Virus record (IMG/VR): IMGVR_UViG_3300042880_000420
Coordinates: 45,033-109,032 of that record
DNA from: a virus
Strand: one strand, 5' to 3'
Length of the DNA stretch: 64,000 bases
Positions 4,491-58,067 of this stretch are shown here, one piece after another; positions within the stretch are counted from its first letter, which is position 1, and every line of letters begins with the position of its first letter. Made by a program: the position numbers and the translations under genes. The notes below the pieces were generated by a model. It was given only the letters and a program-made list of their open reading frames with translations, made no database searches and was not told the DNA's origin.

Positions 4491-7400
4491 TTATTTAGTA
4501 GTATTAAATACACTATTATACTCTTTATCTAATTTATCTCTTAATTGTTTCTGAGCATAATTTAAATCTTGAACAGGTGTATATGTTCTTTTTAAAATAG
4601 TTGAATTTTCATAAGATTGTGTATTAACGCCTTTTCTTAATGCATCAATAAAATCTTCTACAGTGACTGTATTAGGCATATCAACAAATGATGTTTCATC
4701 ATAATTTGTATTTCCAGTATAATCTTTCCAATTATATGTTAAAACATTATTTGTTGGATCTTGCTGTACAATTTTATATCCTGCTTTAAATTTAATATTA
4801 CCAGTTGTAATATCTTTATATATTTCATATTTTAATCCAAAGTCTTCATCTGTCTTTGAAGATTTGACTGTTCCATTACTTAATAATAATGAATAAAAAT
4901 GATCTTGATATGGATTAGGCATTCCAGGAACCATTGCCTCATTTCTAAGTTGAAAAGTTATTTCTCCATTAAAAAAATCATACTTTGATCTATCTTTTTT
5001 ATCAATATTTTTTAATAATTCGTCTTTATTATATGTAAAAGTAATATTTCTTTTTGTAGGATCAGGACTTCCCATATTGTGATATTTAAGAGATGTCAAT
5101 CCAGCAGCAGGATCAGAAACTATTTTTGTGATAAGTTTTTGAAGTTTATCTTGCTGGTCTTCATCATATCCAACAATAACATATTTATCATCTTCTATAT
5201 CTACAATATTATTAATATTTGTAAAAACTTGTTGTGCTATTCTATCTGCGTAATCTGTTCTATCAGTGGGACTAGACATGTATGTAATTGTCTTGCCCAT
5301 TTTACCCGTTTCTTCACTGATTGTTTTTTGTAAATTTTCAGGAATAGCACTTTTAAGTAAACCATATCCTTTATCTAATTTTTTTCTAACTTCCTCAGGC
5401 TTTCCATAATCTCTTACAATACCCGTAATGTCATATGTTTGTCCATTTTTATCTGTTGCAGTATAACCTATAATAACTTTACTTTTTACTGAAATATTTG
5501 TTGTTGGTGATGTATATGTAATTTCTTCTTCATATATAGGTTCTGGCTTTAAGGTTCCATTTACATATGCTTGTGCAATTTCTAAAGGAAGTTTAACGCG
5601 CTTATTATTTACAGTGAATTCACGAATATTACTTAAATTTTCAGCAGTGAATAAAAGACTCTTACCATTTTTATCTTTAATGGTAATGTCTTTATATTTT
5701 TCAGGATTTTTTTCAACCTGTGCTGCAATTCGTTCATCATATTGCTTTCTTAAAGCATATGCATTATTTAGTTTATTTCTTGCAGATTGTAATTTAGTGT
5801 ACGTCTGATAATTTGAATTAATTCTATTTTGTAAACTTGCATCATATTCATTTTTTGCAAGCATATCGTTTAAATTGTTTATATCCTTTTCAACCGTTTG
5901 AGAATAATAATCACTAACTGCTGACAAAGCAACTATTGGACCAGTGAGTTTAACAGGTTTAAGACCTGCTCCTTCTAATTTAGTATTTAATTTGCTTTCA
6001 ACATCTTTTAATGTAGTCTGATAATCCTTACTCATTGTACTTGGGTCATTTGCAATTGCAGAAAAAATGAACCCAACTTCTTGAGGTGAAATAACATCCT
6101 GTAACATATTAATAGGAACACTTTCTAATACAGATTTCATTTCCTGTAATCCAGTGGAATGCATACTAGTTATTGCAGAATTAAAAGTTTCAACATCTGA
6201 CTCAATTTTATTTGCATTTGTTGTAGCAGTTACTGTAGGAATTATATTTTTTAAAGCAATTGGTTTTCCACTTGCATCATATTCTACATTTTCACCACCG
6301 CTTTCAATTGATTTTTTTGTTTCTTCCCAATTTTGTTTTCTAACATTAAGAGAATGTGTTTGTGCAAATTCTGTTGCTTGACGTTGCTCAGATATATTAT
6401 TCCAGTATGACTGATCTGTAGTAATTTCTAAAGATTGTTTACTTGCTGCACTCTTAGCAGCAACTTCCATATCTTTATCCATTTTAAGATTTGCAAAAAA
6501 TGCAGTGGGGCTAGTGCTAATTCTTTTTATTATTTCATCATATTTAATTTTATCTTCTTCATTTCCTACACCTTTTGTTTTTAACAATGAAGTTTCTTTT
6601 TCTAATTCTTTTATTCTTTTATTTATTTCACCACCTTGTGTAATATATTGTGAATATAAATCTTCATTGCTATTTCTTGCGTTATCTGCATTAGTTTGTG
6701 CAATAATACGACTATCTTTTAAATACTTAATTTTATCATCATAACTTTTTATTTGTTGATCAATATGATATTTTGGAAGCATAGATATTGCTTCTTCATC
6801 AGATATTTCAACACCTTTAAATTTTCTTTCATCATCTTTTATATCTTGAATACCTTGAATTTTAAAATATTCACCGTACATACTATATTGATCATTTGCA
6901 GATTCGCCTAAATATGTTTTAAACAAATCAGCAAAAGATTTATATAATCCGTCTCCATTTACTTGTTTATAAATACGACCATTTTGCGACCAACTTAATT
7001 CTTGTTTCCATTCATTTTTTTTAATCCAATCCTGAAATTCTTTTGGATGATTTTGTAACGGTGTTGCTTTTATTAAAGGCACTTGATTAATAATATCAGG
7101 ATCATCTGCTGTTTTAATTTTATTCATATAATAATTCATCACCGTAATAGGTGTATTATTATCATAGTCAGGATGTTCTTTTTTAATTTTTTCTTGTTCT
7201 GCTAATTGAGCATATCTACTTTTTGTATCTGCTATATGAGCTAACATTGTTTTATCCTCCCAAAAAGGAGAATATAAATTTTCAGCAGAATCTACATTTG
7301 ATTGGATGGAAAGATCTGTAGTGCTGATTGTTTTTAATTGATCTTTAATTTGATTCAAATAATCATCTCTTCTTTTGCTATATTTATCATTTAATATTGG

Positions 7401-7626: not shown

Positions 7627-9681
7627 TTATACTTGATTTCTAGACTTTCTCCTTCTTGTTTGGTCATTCGTCATTCCTTGTTGCATTTTCATATAATCTA
7701 GATAATCACTTACACTCATATCAGCATCTTTTGCTGCTTGTGCAATATCTTTTGCACTCATTTTTTCTGTATCAGATTGACTATTAAAAAATGCCTGCAT
7801 AGATTTAGGACTATGAAAATATATAGTTCCAGTTCCAGGTCTAACACCATAATAAGGACTTTCAGTCAAACTCGTATTATAAAGATTAGCTGCATTTCTT
7901 TGACCTTGTGTATAAGCTTGCAAAACACCTGTACGTGCTTGTCTCATTGCATTTTGATATTGTTGTTCATTAATTACACCAGCATCATATAAACGTTTAG
8001 TACGTTGTGCATCATATGCTATTTGTTTATTAGTAATATCAGCTGCTTGACTAGCTGCTGCATTTCCTAATTGAACATTTAAATTAGATGTTTTTCCAAT
8101 GGCATTTGCTACACTAGCAAGTTCTTGACCAACAGGAACTGTTCCTAAATTTTGTTTTCCTGCAAACATGTTACGTGCTTGTCTATTTGAATTTGCTATT
8201 TCATTAATAGCAGCTAATTCTCTAGCTGAATCATAATATCTTGTTTCAGGTCTTTGAAATTTAACAGTAGGTTCAAAAGGTGTAAATCTTCTTACACCAG
8301 TTAAATTTTTAAGTGAATTTAAAAGAATTGCATTATCAGGATTTGTCCAACCATATTTAATTGGAGATCTATTATATGTCGTTATATCATTATTTTTAAT
8401 TTTACTTTCATTATCAAAATTAAAAGTATAAGGATTATTTTTTAAATAATTATGTAATAATACATTAGAACCAATAAGATTACCATCTTTATCAGTAAAT
8501 TTACTTTTTTGTTTTTCTTCATCTGAAAACAAACTAGCATTTTGAAGTCTATTTATTCCTTGTTGATTTTGTTCTAAAGCCGTTTGATAATCAAAAGATT
8601 TTGTAAAATCAGGAACATCAGATTGTGGAATTGTTAATTCGTATGGATTTTTCTTACTATTAATTTTTGAAGATAGATTAATTCCATTAGTTATGTTATC
8701 ACTTTCCACCTCACTTCCTTCTTCATCACCAATATATCTTTTTAAATTCATACCACCATATTTCATTCTACCACCATACATCATATCACCACCATACATT
8801 GCTTCCTGTGGGTTTTCTTCCATTTGTTCTTGAGATTCAACATCAGAAGCTTGCATCATCTTTGCATAATATTCTTGTGCAATATTGGGAATACCTTGCG
8901 GATATCCTTTCTTACCTTCTTGTACAAGAGCAAGTTGTGCTAATTTCTTATTATAATTTTGAATCATCAGCTCTGCTGTACGTTTCTTAATAGAATCAGC
9001 TCTAGGATCTTCAAGTATAGCTTTATATTTATTAAGATCATATTGTTTAGCTATTTGTGCCGGAGTAAATTTTTTAGATGATTTTTCAGACTTACCAAAT
9101 ACGCTAAGAACAGAACCACCAAGTTTCATCTTCTTTGTATCAGAAAAAATAAATGTACCTTCAGGAACATTTAATGGTACACCACCTTGCGTATGTCTTT
9201 TACCTTTTATATTGTAATGACTTTTAGTTCCATCTTCTTTTGGAATTACAGCAGTTTCACCACCTTCTGCTTCAATATTTGCATGCTCTCTTGGAACAGC
9301 AGACAACGTATTATTAACATCTAACTCTTCATCAGTATCTTGATTCATCCAAAGTCTTCTAGAACCAAGATCTAATCCATATCCCATTTGACCACCATAA
9401 GCAGCAGTTTGCATATCATATCCCATATTAGAATTTTGGTCTTGTGATTCAACACCTTGCAATTCTTGATACATTTGCATAATGGTTTGTTTTTGTTCTT
9501 CTTCTCCCATTTGTTGAAGTTGTTGAACAATTTGTTGTGCATCAACACCATTAGCTTCAGCAAATGCTTGTATAACTTGCATAATTTGCTCTTGAGGATT
9601 ACCACTTTGTTGTTGCATTGTCATATCTCCACCATCTTGATATTTAGCAGGATACTTTTTTATTTTGACTTTGTATTTCAT
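7627..9681 (-). CDS. Virion cargo protein with xxGG repeats (684 aa)
   Basis: ANIEAEGGET...GKRHTQGGVPL segment typical of crAss-like structural/cargo proteins; repeated YQDGG, AYGG, MYGG, KYGG. Confidence 0.7.
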   Translation of the reverse strand: MKYKVKIKKYPAKYQDGGDMTMQQQSGNPQEQIMQVIQAFAEANGVDAQQIVQQLQQMGEEEQKQTIMQMYQELQGVESQDQNSNMGYDMQTAAYGGQMGYGLDLGSRRLWMNQDTDEELDVNNTLSAVPREHANIEAEGGETAVIPKEDGTKSHYNIKGKRHTQGGVPLNVPEGTFIFSDTKKMKLGGSVLSVFGKSEKSSKKFTPAQIAKQYDLNKYKAILEDPRADSIKKRTAELMIQNYNKKLAQLALVQEGKKGYPQGIPNIAQEYYAKMMQASDVESQEQMEENPQEAMYGGDMMYGGRMKYGGMNLKRYIGDEEGSEVESDNITNGINLSSKINSKKNPYELTIPQSDVPDFTKSFDYQTALEQNQQGINRLQNASLFSDEEKQKSKFTDKDGNLIGSNVLLHNYLKNNPYTFNFDNESKIKNNDITTYNRSPIKYGWTNPDNAILLNSLKNLTGVRRFTPFEPTVKFQRPETRYYDSARELAAINEIANSNRQARNMFAGKQNLGTVPVGQELASVANAIGKTSNLNVQLGNAAASQAADITNKQIAYDAQRTKRLYDAGVINEQQYQNAMRQARTGVLQAYTQGQRNAANLYNTSLTESPYYGVRPGTGTIYFHSPKSMQAFFNSQSDTEKMSAKDIAQAAKDADMSVSDYLDYMKMQQGMTNDQTRRRKSRNQV

Positions 9682-53457: not shown

Positions 53458-53824
53458 AATTTCTTTTTCGATGTATTTTTATAAATTCTTTTCGTTGCAT
53501 TTCACTTTTACACATATCCATCATTTTTTCAATGTAAGTTAATTTATTACGTAATTGTTCTATAATCAACTCACTGCGTTTAGACCCACGTTGTGCTATA
53601 CTATCTATCATAAAAAGATATTTCTCCTTTTCTTTTTCTAATATCCAATGCTTTATAGTAAAATTACCAAAAGCACTGACATGTACAATAGGAGCTTTTA
53701 ATTCTGAAAGAGCACCTCGTACATCTTTCCAATATGTTGTTACAATATCGTTAACAATATTTACAGGTAGATTTAACTCCATTGCTGTAGATACAATAAG
53801 GTCTTTAGCTTTTGTTGGTTTCAA
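53438..53824 (-). CDS. HU/IHF-like DNA-binding protein (TTG start)
   Basis: KDLIVSTAMELNLP...VHVSAFGNFTIK. Confidence 0.7.
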   Translation of the reverse strand: MKPTKAKDLIVSTAMELNLPVNIVNDIVTTYWKDVRGALSELKAPIVHVSAFGNFTIKHWILEKEKEKYLFMIDSIAQRGSKRSELIIEQLRNKLTYIEKMMDMCKSEMQRKEFIKIHRKRNYAKTNI

Positions 53825-54179
53825 CAGAAAGAAAATTATAGTTTAATAATACGTTACCATCCTTAACAACTCCTATAGCATCATCAATAGAAAGTTTCTT
53901 TCTATTCTTTCCTTTCTTTGTGACAATACCCTTTTTTTCTAATTTATTTAAAGAGTTTCTTACACTTTGAGGTGTTTTGAAAATGTTCATTTCACATGCT
54001 TTTTTACAAAGAACATTAAGTTCATTGACATTATCATCTGTAGCAAGAAGTACAAGACATTCTATTTCAGCATCAGATAGATGAAGTTTATTAAAAAAGC
54101 AATAAGTGAGTAGTTGATATTTCACAACTTCCCACTTAGTCATAACACATTTTTTCAACACTTGGTTTACTTGTGTCAT
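53805..54179 (-). CDS. Winged-HTH protein
   Basis: TPQSVRNSLNKLEKKGIVTKKG. Confidence 0.65.
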   Translation of the reverse strand: MTQVNQVLKKCVMTKWEVVKYQLLTYCFFNKLHLSDAEIECLVLLATDDNVNELNVLCKKACEMNIFKTPQSVRNSLNKLEKKGIVTKKGKNRKKLSIDDAIGVVKDGNVLLNYNFLSVETNKS

Positions 54180-54183
54180 TCTA

Positions 54184-54537
54184 TTACTTTTTTAATGCTC
54201 TATTAGATATAGGTGCTTTTTTCTCCTCTTTATCAGCAATCTCTGTTGGAATGCCTATTACATCACCCACCTTTAAACCTTGTTCCTTTAATTCTGGGTT
54301 GGCTTCAAGATCTTCTTCTGTAAGGGTGTGTTCTGCAACAGCATTAGAACCTTCATGTGGGGTAGAAATTTGAGCAATTGTATACATTGCTTTTACATAT
54401 TCTGCACGTGCAACAGCAATCCTTGTATCAAGCTCTTGTAATTCAGCTTGTACTTTCTTAAATTCAATTTGCTCTTGCATCCATGTAAGCATTTGCTCCT
54501 TTGTAGGAGCTGCATCTTGTTTTTGTTGGTTTTCCAT
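54184..54537 (-). CDS. Hypothetical protein (117 aa), first gene of the packaging operon
   Basis: Coiled coil plus HTLTEEDLEANPELKEQGLKVGDVI module. Confidence 0.65.
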   Translation of the reverse strand: MENQQKQDAAPTKEQMLTWMQEQIEFKKVQAELQELDTRIAVARAEYVKAMYTIAQISTPHEGSNAVAEHTLTEEDLEANPELKEQGLKVGDVIGIPTEIADKEEKKAPISNRALKK

Positions 54538-55361: not shown

Positions 55362-55608
55362 TAACAAAAACTATTATAATTATTTTTTATAAAATTTAAT
55401 TAATTGTAAATGATATATCCCCCATATGATAACACACAATATAACTCCCCCAGGCATGCTTATGTTTGGAGATTTTTATAAAGTTTTAAAATATAAGATT
55501 TTGACATGTAATTTATTTTGTAATAGAGGGTGTAATGGGTATTTCCAAAAAATACCCCTACTCTGTTTTGGTGGTGATATTACCCCCATAATCTTAAATT
55601 CTTATTTT

Positions 55609-55893
55609 ATGAATCCTATCCAAGCCGTAATTGTTTCAATCAATGACGTTGTTAAAACCAAAACCAATGGTAAGTCCTATGTGACTTGCAAGGTGGAATT
55701 CCCTAACGGAAAAACTTGGTTTGCTCAGCGGACGCTGGGTGAAAACAAGGCAGTCATTCATGTCGGTCAAACAGTCACGTGTATTCCAAGTGTCATCGTA
55801 GATGCGGAAGGTAAAAACCAACCTTTCTTGGAAATCTCCACGGGAGTTTCAGTGAGCAGTAAGGAGGAAATCCTTGCAATGCTTGGACTGTAA
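55609..55893 (+). CDS. OB-fold-like protein (94 aa), possible SSB
   Basis: MNPIQAVIVSIN...KTNGKSYVTCKVEF...VGQTVTC all-beta pattern; start reassigned from 55426. Confidence 0.55.
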   Translation: MNPIQAVIVSINDVVKTKTNGKSYVTCKVEFPNGKTWFAQRTLGENKAVIHVGQTVTCIPSVIVDAEGKNQPFLEISTGVSVSSKEEILAMLGL

Positions 55894-55904
55894 TAGTCCA
55901 ACAT

Positions 55905-55942
55905 AAAACACACACAGCAGAAATGTTGTGTGTGTTTTTTTT
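55905..55942 (+). terminator. Intrinsic terminator
   Basis: AAAACACACACAGCA-GAAA-TGTTGTGTGTGTTTT followed by a T run. Confidence 0.85.
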
Positions 55943-55952
55943 ATTTGTTTAT

Positions 55953-55981
55953 ATATTCCTACGAATATTCCTACGAATATT
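55953..55981. repeat. 12-bp tandem repeat, 2.4 copies
   Basis: ATATTCCTACGA ATATTCCTACGA ATATT. Confidence 0.8.
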
Positions 55982-56001
55982 TTTAATAAAACATTACAAC
56001 T

Positions 56002-56024
56002 TATTGATTATCAATTAGTTATGA
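56002..56024 (+). repeat. 23-bp direct repeat, copy 2, part of an imperfect palindrome
   Basis: TATTGATTATCAATTAGTTATGA; overlaps AACTTATTGAT-T-ATCAATTAGTT. Confidence 0.75.
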
Positions 56025-56028
56025 TGTA

Positions 56029-56044
56029 TGTTCCACGTGAAACA
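56029..56044. promoter_or_regulatory. parS: parS centromere-like site
   Basis: TGTTCCACGTGAAACA, exact match to the bacterial consensus TGTTNCACGTGAAACA; intergenic. Confidence 0.85.
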
Positions 56045-56702
56045 TTTGTTTTTTTGTTAGTTGTGTGAGTGTGTTTATAAGTGGTAAACAACTCACACAC
56101 TGTTTCTTAATATAAACGAATACTTAGATTCCACAAAAAACTTGCGGCATTAAATAGCTATAGACTGAAATGTTCCTTTACACAGTCTTTAAATAAATGT
56201 ATAAATACAATTGCTGCATGGTAGCTCAAAGCAAGTTGTTAATTCAACCAACATTCTTTTTAGTATTATTTTTCTTATATGGGATAAAGCATAGAAAAAA
56301 TATACACCTTTTACAATAAGCACTACAAAGGAAGGCATTCCTAGTAGTAAAAGAAAACAATAGTATATCACTGCATACTGTTGTTTCTGCTTTTATTAAA
56401 AATTAGTCATAAAAAAAGACTAATACTACTATGTAAAAAAAATTATTAAATTCCTGAAAGTATTTCCAAATGTAGTGATTAGGAAAAAGGATAGGGGCTT
56501 GTGGTTAAACTGTAGACTACGAGCAAGAGCAGTGGTGTTGATATCTTCCTTATAGATATTATTATAACAAATAATAGAGAAGTACGAATTACAACCTCAA
56601 TTGTAATTAAAAGAAAAAGTAAGTGTGAGAAGCTTATAAATATCTTTTGTATTATATATAGATGTACACTATATGTAAGATTTTATCTATTATTTGTTAT
56701 AA

Positions 56703-56762
56703 TTTCTGTCCATAAACTGTTGTTTATGCTGATGATGACCTAATTGAGGGTCGAAACAGAAA
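56703..56762 (+). ncRNA. Type III hammerhead ribozyme
   Basis: Stem III UUUCUGU/ACAGAAA; GUC cleavage triplet (cut after 56710); stem I CAUAAAC/GUUUAUG; core CUGAUGA(U); stem II GACC/GGUC; GAAA. Confidence 0.9.
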
Positions 56763-56781
56763 CCTTTTTAAATTTAAAACA

Positions 56782-57117
56782 ATGGAAACAATCAATGTTT
56801 ATTCCGCATTTAGTCATGTATTTAGTACTTCAAAAGAAAATACAGATATTCATTACTATGAATCAAAATATGTTAAAGCTCCTAACAATCATGTTATATG
56901 TATTGATAGTGCAAGAGAAGAAGCTCATAGTGCTAAATTTAATTCTATTATAGGTAAAACATTTCAACCTGAATATAGAATTGAATTATGGGCTACTAAA
57001 ACATTTGAAGAAAGAAAAAAACAAGATTTTATTAATCTTCAAATGAAACGTCAGATAATTCATTATTGTGATGGTACTCATAAAATTGTTGAACTTAAAG
57101 ATTTGCAATTAATATGA
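56782..57117 (+). CDS. Hypothetical early protein (111 aa)
   Basis: ORF track; A-rich leader. Confidence 0.65.
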   Translation: METINVYSAFSHVFSTSKENTDIHYYESKYVKAPNNHVICIDSAREEAHSAKFNSIIGKTFQPEYRIELWATKTFEERKKQDFINLQMKRQIIHYCDGTHKIVELKDLQLI

Positions 57118-57371
57118 GTAAAGAAATAGTTTACTGAAAACAACGTAATGGTGTATTAATATCTATATATGATATGGATATTAATCACCTTCGTAATGTG
57201 TTAAAACTAATCATCAAAAATAAAAACAGATTAAAAGCTACTTTAAATGAAAAACTTGAAAAAGAAAAACATATAAAAGCAGCTAATAACTTTGTTTTAC
57301 ATGGTGATATGGCTCAAGAATTTCATGAATCTTATTTATCTGATGAAGATGATGATAGATTTGATGATTAA
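57114..57371 (+). pseudogene. Small phage gene with in-frame TGA at codon 8 (alternatively a 65-aa CDS from 57174)
   Basis: ATG overlapping the upstream stop (ATGA): MSKEIVY*KQRNGVLISIYDMDINHLRN... Confidence 0.5.
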
Positions 57372-57794
57372 TTTATTCCCAATGTAAACATTTTGTAATA
57401 CATAGGCATAAGACTACAGTTGTGGTTATAAATCCATACAGAGTTTAATTAACTCCAAGGTGGTATATTTATGTCTGGTATGCTAACACTTCAATCATTT
57501 AGCTAATGATTTGTGGAAACCACTATACATTTTAAGCTTGTTAACGGAAATCCTGTTATGGGTATTCTTACTGAACCTTCATGATAAAAAAGTCCATAGA
57601 CTTGTAGGTTGTGTAAAGGTAACAATGTATGTGTATTACAACTGAGTGCAGAGGGATACATGTTTACATATTGTAATAAGTTTGTACAGACTTCTTTAGG
57701 GCCACAATCCTTAGAATGCAAAATAACTACGGGGGTTTTGTGTTACAATTATGTAAATAAAAATTTTTTAAACTCAAAAAACAATATATATATT

Positions 57795-58067
57795 ATGACA
57801 AACACATTACAAATTAGTCAGTTGACAAAACATTCTTTATCATCTACTGATAATATGTATAATTTTCTATTAGGTATTACATCTGATGGATTATATATAT
57901 TAAATATGGATAAGACATTATTATTAGAAGTAATAGTTGATGGTAATTCTAATGATTGTACAGTATGTTCTGCTCCTAATGAAGATGCTTTCTTAGATGC
58001 TATTCTTTTTATTAAGAAAGTTCTTAAAGATGGTTATAATCCTTTGGAGGTTATTAAATTTCATTAA
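57795..58067 (+). CDS. Hypothetical protein (90 aa)
   Basis: Start reassigned to MTNTLQ after an A-rich leader. Confidence 0.55.
   Translation: MTNTLQISQLTKHSLSSTDNMYNFLLGITSDGLYILNMDKTLLLEVIVDGNSNDCTVCSAPNEDAFLDAILFIKKVLKDGYNPLEVIKFH

Follow-up and report, generated by a model that had tools for sequence, protein, structure and literature searches.

Phages and bacteria are known to carry self-cleaving ribozymes by the thousand, hammerheads and twisters among them. In the synthetic insulator RiboJ, a hammerhead set between an upstream transcript and a leader gives the mRNA a constant 5′-OH start, and the theta ribozymes of phages define the end of a tRNA. These minimal HDV-like ribozymes adjoin phage tRNA genes (PMC10879173), and the function of bacterial and phage ribozymes at large has been called largely elusive in a review (PMC6765202). 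Phage hammerheads have been described flanking transcript units (Perreault et al. 2011, PMC3088659); in the haloviruses HF1/HF2, the HHphage hammerhead lies 13 nt before the start of an early gene and is associated with a mapped 5′ end (PMC3088659). RNA viruses of fungi and plants carry ribozymes in their UTRs, either singly in the 5′ UTR or as tandem pairs that enclose RNAs of 186–399 nt, and in these viruses self-cleavage, by any ribozyme class, is needed for translation initiation (PMC13725137).

The hammerhead described here lies in a DNA stretch of 64,000 nucleotides, called the window below, which comprises bases 45033–109032 of an IMG/VR record of 109,032 bp (29% G+C, estimated 91% complete). 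PHROG families are matched by its terminase, its portal and its major head protein, and we take these proteins and the genome layout to be of the crAss type, the tool output itself carrying no such label. Since the phage DNA is also present in many lake and freshwater metagenomes, we read the genome as that of an uncultured freshwater crAss-like phage. A blastn search of the INPHARED phages with 56000–58000 gave no match. The minus-strand arm of the genome encodes giant proteins, whereas the plus-strand arm runs from about 55.4 kb of the window through the contig end into its start. The hammerhead unit is located 1.3 kb into the plus arm, and it is this place at the start of the arm that suggests that the downstream gene may be an early one.

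Upstream of the unit stands a terminator-like hairpin (Table 1), 91% conserved in the related contig L032, which implies that the non-coding RNA (ncRNA), hammerhead and ORF have a promoter of their own. No Bacteroidota-type −7 motif (TAnnTTTG) occurs between the terminator and the ncRNA, and a sigma-70 scan did not rise above shuffles. The same interval holds a 12-bp tandem repeat (ATTCCTACGAAT twice, 55961–55984) and a palindrome, TGTTCCACGTGAAACA (56029–56044), which we take to be parS-like.

Table 1. Features of the hammerhead unit, in window coordinates.
Feature	Position	Strand	Basis
Strong intrinsic-terminator-like hairpin	55905–55938	+	15-pair stem and T run, after ORF 55426–55893
Decayed type III hammerhead at the 5′ side of the ncRNA	about 56255–56303	+	Aligns with intact 5′ copies in L087/L016, L077 and L036
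Conserved, ORF-free structured ncRNA, about 390 nt	56318–56710	+	Homology and covariation; 3′ end at the predicted hammerhead cut
Long closing helix of the ncRNA 3′ domain, about 23 bp	56561–56583 with 56680–56703	+	Folds; compensatory changes at several pairs
Type III hammerhead ribozyme	56703–56762	+	All core residues, three stems, extra U at 56736
Predicted scissile bond	56710–56711	+	Position of C17 in the motif
A/U-rich 19-nt leader (CCUUUUUAAAUUUAAAACA)	56763–56781	+	Similar in relatives behind hammerhead or twister
First ORF after the ribozyme, 111 aa	56782–57117	+	No family match

The hammerhead reads UUUCUG-U-C and, past the predicted cleavage site, CAUAAAC-UGUU-GUUUAUG-CUGAUGA-U-GACCU-AAUUGA-GGGUC-GAAA-CAGAAA. 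Stem I (56711–56717 with 56722–56728) contains seven perfect pairs and the loop UGUU; stem II (56737–56741 with 56748–56752) contains four Watson–Crick pairs, a closing U·G pair and the loop AAUUGA; and stem III (56703–56708 with 56757–56762) contains six pairs, flanked by the pair A15.1 (56756):U16.1 (56709). Loops cap stems I and II and stem III is left open, which is the type III topology. The conserved core C3-U4-G5-A6-N7-G8-A9 is present as CUGAUGA at 56729–56735 and is invariant across 30 aligned members of the class, GAAA occupies 56753–56756, and the cleavage triplet is GUC, with C17 at 56710 and U56709 conforming to the N-U-H rule. The core carries a single insertion, the extra U between A9 and G10.1. 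The minimum-free-energy fold of the 60-mer is the three-way junction itself (z = −3.25). Loop 2 ends in a 3′-terminal A that is at least 90% conserved in the class; loop 1 starts with U and, at only 4 nt, is shorter than the UNmYN motif of PMC2632901. We make no claim of Watson–Crick pairing between loops 1 and 2, which was traced only by visual inspection. Altogether, the motif bears out the original prediction, made on this DNA before the present analysis, which had listed all core nucleotides (CUGAUGA, GAAA and GUC), three perfect stems, one extra U between A9 and G10.1 and an end about 20 nt upstream of the ATG at 56782, a distance measured here as 19 nt.

A descriptor scan returns this element as the sole hammerhead-like motif in the 109-kb genome, and first-order Markov simulations yield 0.24 chance motifs per genome with stems of at least 3 bp and 0.03 with stems of at least 4 bp. 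This rate is suggestive; taken per genome, it would not on its own exclude chance across the whole scan of many thousand windows. The decisive evidence is comparative. A covariance model (R1) that rests on 27 other type III hammerheads of phages, the window's element and its nearest copy being excluded, scores the hammerhead at 74.4 bits (E = 7e-17), the next-best match in the 64-kb window reaching 13 bits. In the alignment of these 27 members, 91% of cells are paired and double changes are seen at 15 of the 18 pairs; none of 500 shuffles reached as high a value and slid controls were 34–44% paired. The U·G pair that closes stem II recurs in 13 of the 27 and, being strand-specific, points to an RNA on the plus strand. 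The changes in the hammerheads of L171, L077 and L036 are compensatory. We are highly confident that the hammerhead is real.

Rfam does not recognize the element. At gathering thresholds no hammerhead was reported in the window; at E ≤ 10, neither a hammerhead nor an ncRNA family was reported in 56500–56900 (401 nt) or 55900–56790; and RF00008 alone, whose gathering threshold of 48.5 bits the element does not reach, gave no match on the whole genome at E ≤ 10. The original prediction had proposed Infernal with the Hammerhead_3 model as its check, and that check fails, as it does for the relatives tested. The negative result says little, since a search with Rfam 15 at gathering thresholds also misses all eight loci tested within L009–L122 that carry obvious hammerheads. 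The class with the inserted U seems to be invisible to current Rfam models.

The extra U had been put down as a known tolerated variant, and it proves to be a common natural one. The pattern CUGAUGA-U-GACC-N(4-12)-GGUC-GAAAC has exact matches at more than 114 loci in IMG/VR, with fewer than one estimated by chance, and many of the matches are complete type III or type II hammerheads with covarying stems. The form lacking the extra U is about equally common in IMG/VR. An extra nucleotide has reportedly been found in the catalytic core of the CChMVd hammerhead (De la Pena and Flores 2001). It is said to lie, likewise, between A9 and G10.1. Phage hammerheads thus commonly vary in this way in nature, which agrees with what is reported for the viroid. 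As a separate observation, dozens of type II hammerheads with the same extra U occur in IMG/VR sample 3300045988 (contigs among L011–L120); many of them are followed by the constant sequence CACCCGGCAGCCAGC, and the whole looks like a very abundant, near-identical cassette.

The RNA that precedes the hammerhead had been described in the original prediction as hairpin-rich, which it is, but that description missed both a discrete family of about 390 nt and a decayed hammerhead at its 5′ end. The segment 56318–56764 is 87% identical to its counterpart in L087/L016 and about 75% identical to that in L077/L036, with flanks that are not alignable (nhmmer E = 1e-110 for the ncRNA), and L171 and L178/L180 match the 3′ domain. 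No ORF of at least 60 aa is found on the plus strand between 55893 and the ribozyme, and the homologues share no common open frame under any stop reassignment and show no 3-nt periodicity of substitutions. No Rfam family matches the ncRNA. The precursor folds far better than shuffled sequences (z = −7.5). RNAalifold finds 107 pairs, 19 of them compensatory, in four sequences, and 72 pairs, 24 of them compensatory, in six sequences of the core and 3′ domain; several conserved G·U pairs make the structure specific to the plus strand. The closing helix of the 3′ domain encloses three hairpins and ends at the start of hammerhead stem III. Conservation, lack of coding potential, covariation and fold z-score establish this RNA as a discrete non-coding family.

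Searches for further members were of limited yield. A 19-base ncRNA motif returned six matches in a metagenome scan, all of them in unrelated coding sequence, and the motif AACAANTANTAGAGAAGTA returned 70 loci in IMG/VR, among which the only new true relatives are L171, L178 and L180. Contigs from RNA libraries of four studies fall only within 56256–56629 and stop short of the ribozyme; at low depth, from runs chosen with this stretch, unable to show ends and possibly including carried-over DNA, they are a weak hint that the ncRNA is expressed. This phage alone has a 13–14-nt insertion, ACACCUUUUACAAU (56304–56317), which separates the relic from the point where the conserved RNA begins; it contains TACAAT and might be the −10 element of a replacement promoter.

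Comparison of the relatives reveals how ribozymes are distributed around the ncRNA. In L087/L016, L077 and L036 (four contigs), the ncRNA is bracketed by two intact type III hammerheads of the same sense. In the window, the 5′ copy is a relic that keeps UUCU, AUGGGAUAA and GAAA and has lost C15.2, the GUC triplet and the 3′ strand of stem II, as well as CUGA, which a 4-nt deletion removed; it is 43–49% identical to the intact 5′ hammerheads over the aligned block, and R1 at E ≤ 10 finds no match at 56255–56303. L171 has only the 3′ hammerhead, whose differences in stems I and II are compensatory. In L178, the place of the window's hammerhead, between the ncRNA core and a similar leader, is taken by a type-P1 twister (RF03160; L178:8798–8863 (−), 53.7 bits, E = 4e-11, below the Rfam gathering threshold of 67.2), and the same twister is assigned to L180 from the near-identity of the two contigs. 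Neither L171 nor L178/L180 yielded a ribozyme on the 5′ side. Every ncRNA-carrying contig thus has a 3′ ribozyme, be it a hammerhead (window, L087/L016, L077, L036 and L171) or a twister-P1 (L178/L180), whereas the 5′ ribozyme is intact in three lineages and decayed in this one. As the 3′ cut is kept by two unrelated ribozymes while the 5′ ribozyme is decayed in the window and was not found in L171 or L178/L180, the predicted 3′ cut is the conserved feature and the 5′ cut is dispensable; the cut itself, rather than the hammerhead fold, appears to be what selection keeps.

Two other RNA features of these contigs deserve mention. A phage tmRNA (92.8 bits; L178:6020–6400 (−)) adjoins a tRNA (5934–6015 (−)) about 2.5 kb from the ncRNA–twister unit. 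In L077, tRNA matches of 107 and 132 nt (6570–6676 and 7632–7763 (−)) are far over tRNA length, which suggests intron-containing or interrupted phage tRNA genes.

On the downstream side, the hammerhead is followed by the A/U-rich leader and the 111-aa ORF. A protein-guided IMG/VR search with this ORF retrieved no relatives, and the downstream ORFs of the related contigs are not homologous to it. The leader and ORF start behind the L178 twister, ACCUUUUAAAAACUUAACAAA AUG GAA ACA AUU, nevertheless resemble those of the window, CCUUUUUAAAUUUAAAACA AUG GAA ACA AUC, although the two proteins are unrelated. The leaders share a motif, (A)CYUUUUAA and then an A-rich run, that is seen before unrelated small ORFs in the window (56763–56781), in L178 (8765–8797 (−)) and in L118, L038, L096 and L032, and may be a group-specific translation or regulatory signal.

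The hammerhead also persists where the ncRNA is missing. L032 shares the terminator and neighbouring genes with the window phage and has an identical hammerhead, a similar leader and an ORF, with unrelated sequence where the window has the ncRNA; L096, L038 and L118 likewise have a hammerhead before a start codon and no ncRNA. In these relatives, the hammerhead stands 19–30 nt before the start codon. Proteins of the minus-arm end (53805–54537) have homologues of only 47–61% identity beside the hammerhead in L096, L032, L171 and L036, so that the ribozyme keeps its syntenic place at the start of the plus arm in diverged phages; the hammerhead itself is 85–100% identical among the relatives compared, a set that leaves L171 aside. 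What is new here, as read from these alignments, is a lineage with a decayed 5′ and an intact 3′ hammerhead, and the persistence of hammerhead and leader in phages lacking the ncRNA.

A wider set of type III hammerheads shows the same spacing. The next ORF starts 15–45 nt after GAAA in 18 of 37 distinct, though not phylogenetically independent, loci (49%), compared with 7% of random positions. The leader role is not universal, since in L077 and L036 the 3′ hammerhead is separated from the next ORF by 71 and 646 nt, respectively. Immediately 5′ of the cut, about 30% of type III hammerheads show a strong hairpin (dG ≤ −8 kcal/mol), against 10% of random positions; given its position directly before stem III, a stem-loop would protect the end of the upstream cleavage product. 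A G+C-rich hairpin just before stem III is seen in L021, L036, L066, L067, L075, L077, L095 and L121.

We consider it likely that the hammerhead, one of a class common in phages, is functional and that its cut, an obligatory one, both frees the 3′ end of the ncRNA and makes a 5′-OH leader, with selection acting on the cut at the ncRNA/leader junction and not on the hammerhead fold as such. Both halves of this reading had been proposed in the original prediction and gain comparative support: production of an mRNA 5′ end is favoured by the start-codon spacing and by the syntenic relatives with a similar leader, and release of the upstream RNA by the ncRNA 3′ end that abuts the ribozyme and by the substitution of a twister in L178/L180.

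The sequences show the motif, its covariation, the synteny, the ncRNA family, the relic and the twister swap; we infer that the unit is transcribed, that it is cut in vivo and that the cut influences stability and translation, as follows. A plus-strand transcript would carry the ncRNA and hammerhead together with the leader and the small genes that follow. On emerging, the hammerhead would fold beside the closing helix of the ncRNA and cut after C56710 by internal transesterification, leaving a 2′,3′-cyclic phosphate on C56710 and a 5′-OH on C56711, by analogy with the chemistry established for hammerheads. The upstream product would be an ncRNA with a defined, helix-protected 3′ end (...UUUCUGUC), consisting of an 8-nt tail past the closing helix and the cyclic phosphate. 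The downstream product would be a 5′-OH mRNA that begins with two stable hairpins (stems I and II), stem III coming apart when the upstream product takes its 5′ strand away, and continues with a single-stranded A/U-rich leader up to the ATG. Both products would thereby gain structured ends, and the cut would separate a large folded RNA from the translation start, uncoupling translation of the first gene from the upstream RNA.

Each half of this proposal could be imagined to stand by itself. If the hammerhead only matured the 3′ end of the ncRNA, its nearness to the ATG being incidental, then a 3′ ribozyme, hammerhead or twister, would be expected in every ncRNA-carrying contig, as is observed, and neither its abutting the closing helix nor the lack of a close downstream ORF in L077 and L036 would call for comment. 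We regard this as improbable: near-identical hammerheads, with the same synteny and start-codon distance, are present in the relatives that have no ncRNA (L032, L096, L038 and L118), and the leader is conserved behind both ribozyme classes. Retention of the hammerhead where there is no ncRNA (L032), the enrichment of start codons 15–45 nt downstream and the HF1/HF2 precedent (PMC3088659) could in turn be taken to mean that the hammerhead is purely an mRNA leader device, a 5′-end maker or insulator like RiboJ, and that release of the upstream RNA is functionless. There is little chance, in our estimate, that this is the whole account, as the upstream RNA is under strong structural selection and as four relatives have ribozymes at both of its ends, an arrangement that makes sense only if the ncRNA itself needs defined ends.

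The dual role of the cut is preferred over either half. Another reading is that cleavage is regulated and not constitutive: the conserved segment GGAUAGGG (56489–56496), for instance, could compete with stem III for UUCUGUCC, leaving some transcripts uncut. RNAalifold on four sequences does pair the two segments, but both are invariant in these sequences and so lend the pairing no covariation support; moreover, a single-sequence fold prefers the hammerhead and the twister-bearing relative has no complementary tail. Regulated cutting has at best a slim chance, and the alternative helix, in the absence of covariation, was not adopted.

Formation of a circular RNA by two-ribozyme excision and ligation, as in retrozymes and viroid-like RNAs, is suggested by the bracketed relatives, where the two type III hammerheads of L087/L016, L077 and L036 run in the same sense and their stem III strands are compatible. 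For this window a retrozyme- or viroid-like circle was rejected, its 5′ hammerhead having no catalytic core (CUGA, GUC and the 3′ strand of stem II are gone); L171 and L178/L180 have no 5′ ribozyme, and no joined (permuted) contig occurs among the RNA-library contigs, of low depth, from the four studies. We hold it to be extremely improbable. That the motif is a chance or decaying inactive one, as the silence of Rfam, the insertion in the core and the short-stem chance motifs expected in a scan this large might suggest, is scarcely credible given its score of 74 bits (E = 7e-17) with an independent model, its perfect conservation across syntenic relatives that have diverged, at a time when the 5′ hammerhead next to it decayed, and the compensatory nature of the changes in L171, L077 and L036.

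A bolder form of the dual-role proposal is that the first gene of the plus arm can be expressed only from a self-made 5′-OH end before the conserved leader, whichever ribozyme makes that end, and that the same cut frees an RNA that acts in infection. This strikes us as possible, if on the unlikely side. If true, such 5′-OH-dependent expression would give phage ribozymes a concrete, testable job. The locus amounts to a natural experiment, in which the same junction is occupied by a hammerhead (the window and five contigs) or a twister (two near-identical contigs). This swap, together with the decayed 5′ partner, points to selection for the 3′ cut and to circle formation being dispensable, and makes the function of a phage ribozyme directly testable. 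In practical terms, Rfam hammerhead models miss the tested members with the inserted U, a variant that is abundant in viral metagenomes.

A literature search found no paper linking hammerheads with crAss-like phages. The hammerhead itself belongs to a known class, and its setting is a variation on known ribozyme punctuation. Like the phage and prophage hammerheads of PMC3088659, it is intergenic, in gene sense and close to a start codon, at 19 nt compared with 13 nt in HF1/HF2, and in both cases hammerhead pairs delimit transcript units. The present case differs in that a large conserved ncRNA, where the others have a small ORF, is the unit delimited upstream, that a freshwater crAss-like phage is the host, that an extra U after A9 marks the class, and that in a related phage a twister replaces the hammerhead between the same ncRNA and a similar leader. 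With type III hammerheads of viroids and satellites (RF00008), the element shares topology, core residues and the GUC site, and with the loop–loop motif of natural hammerheads (PMC2632901) it shares the A at the 3′ end of loop 2; unlike the viroid and satellite ribozymes, it is encoded in double-stranded DNA, outside a rolling-circle replicon, and obtains no RF00008 score.

Theta ribozymes (PMC10879173) are similar in that a small self-cleaving class adjoins a phage ncRNA; they differ in ribozyme class and in cargo, a tRNA there and an RNA of about 390 nt here, and they are not reported to be coupled to a leader downstream. RiboJ, too, stands between a leader and the transcript sequence that precedes it, but the window's element is natural and would also mature the RNA upstream of it. 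As in the eukaryotic RNA viruses of PMC13725137, a ribozyme is found either alone before a gene or as one of a pair enclosing a small RNA. Those viruses use cap-independent translation, whereas the present case is a DNA phage with bacterial translation; if 5′-OH-dependent expression holds true, it would constitute a bacterial parallel to their ribozyme-dependent translation (PMC13725137).
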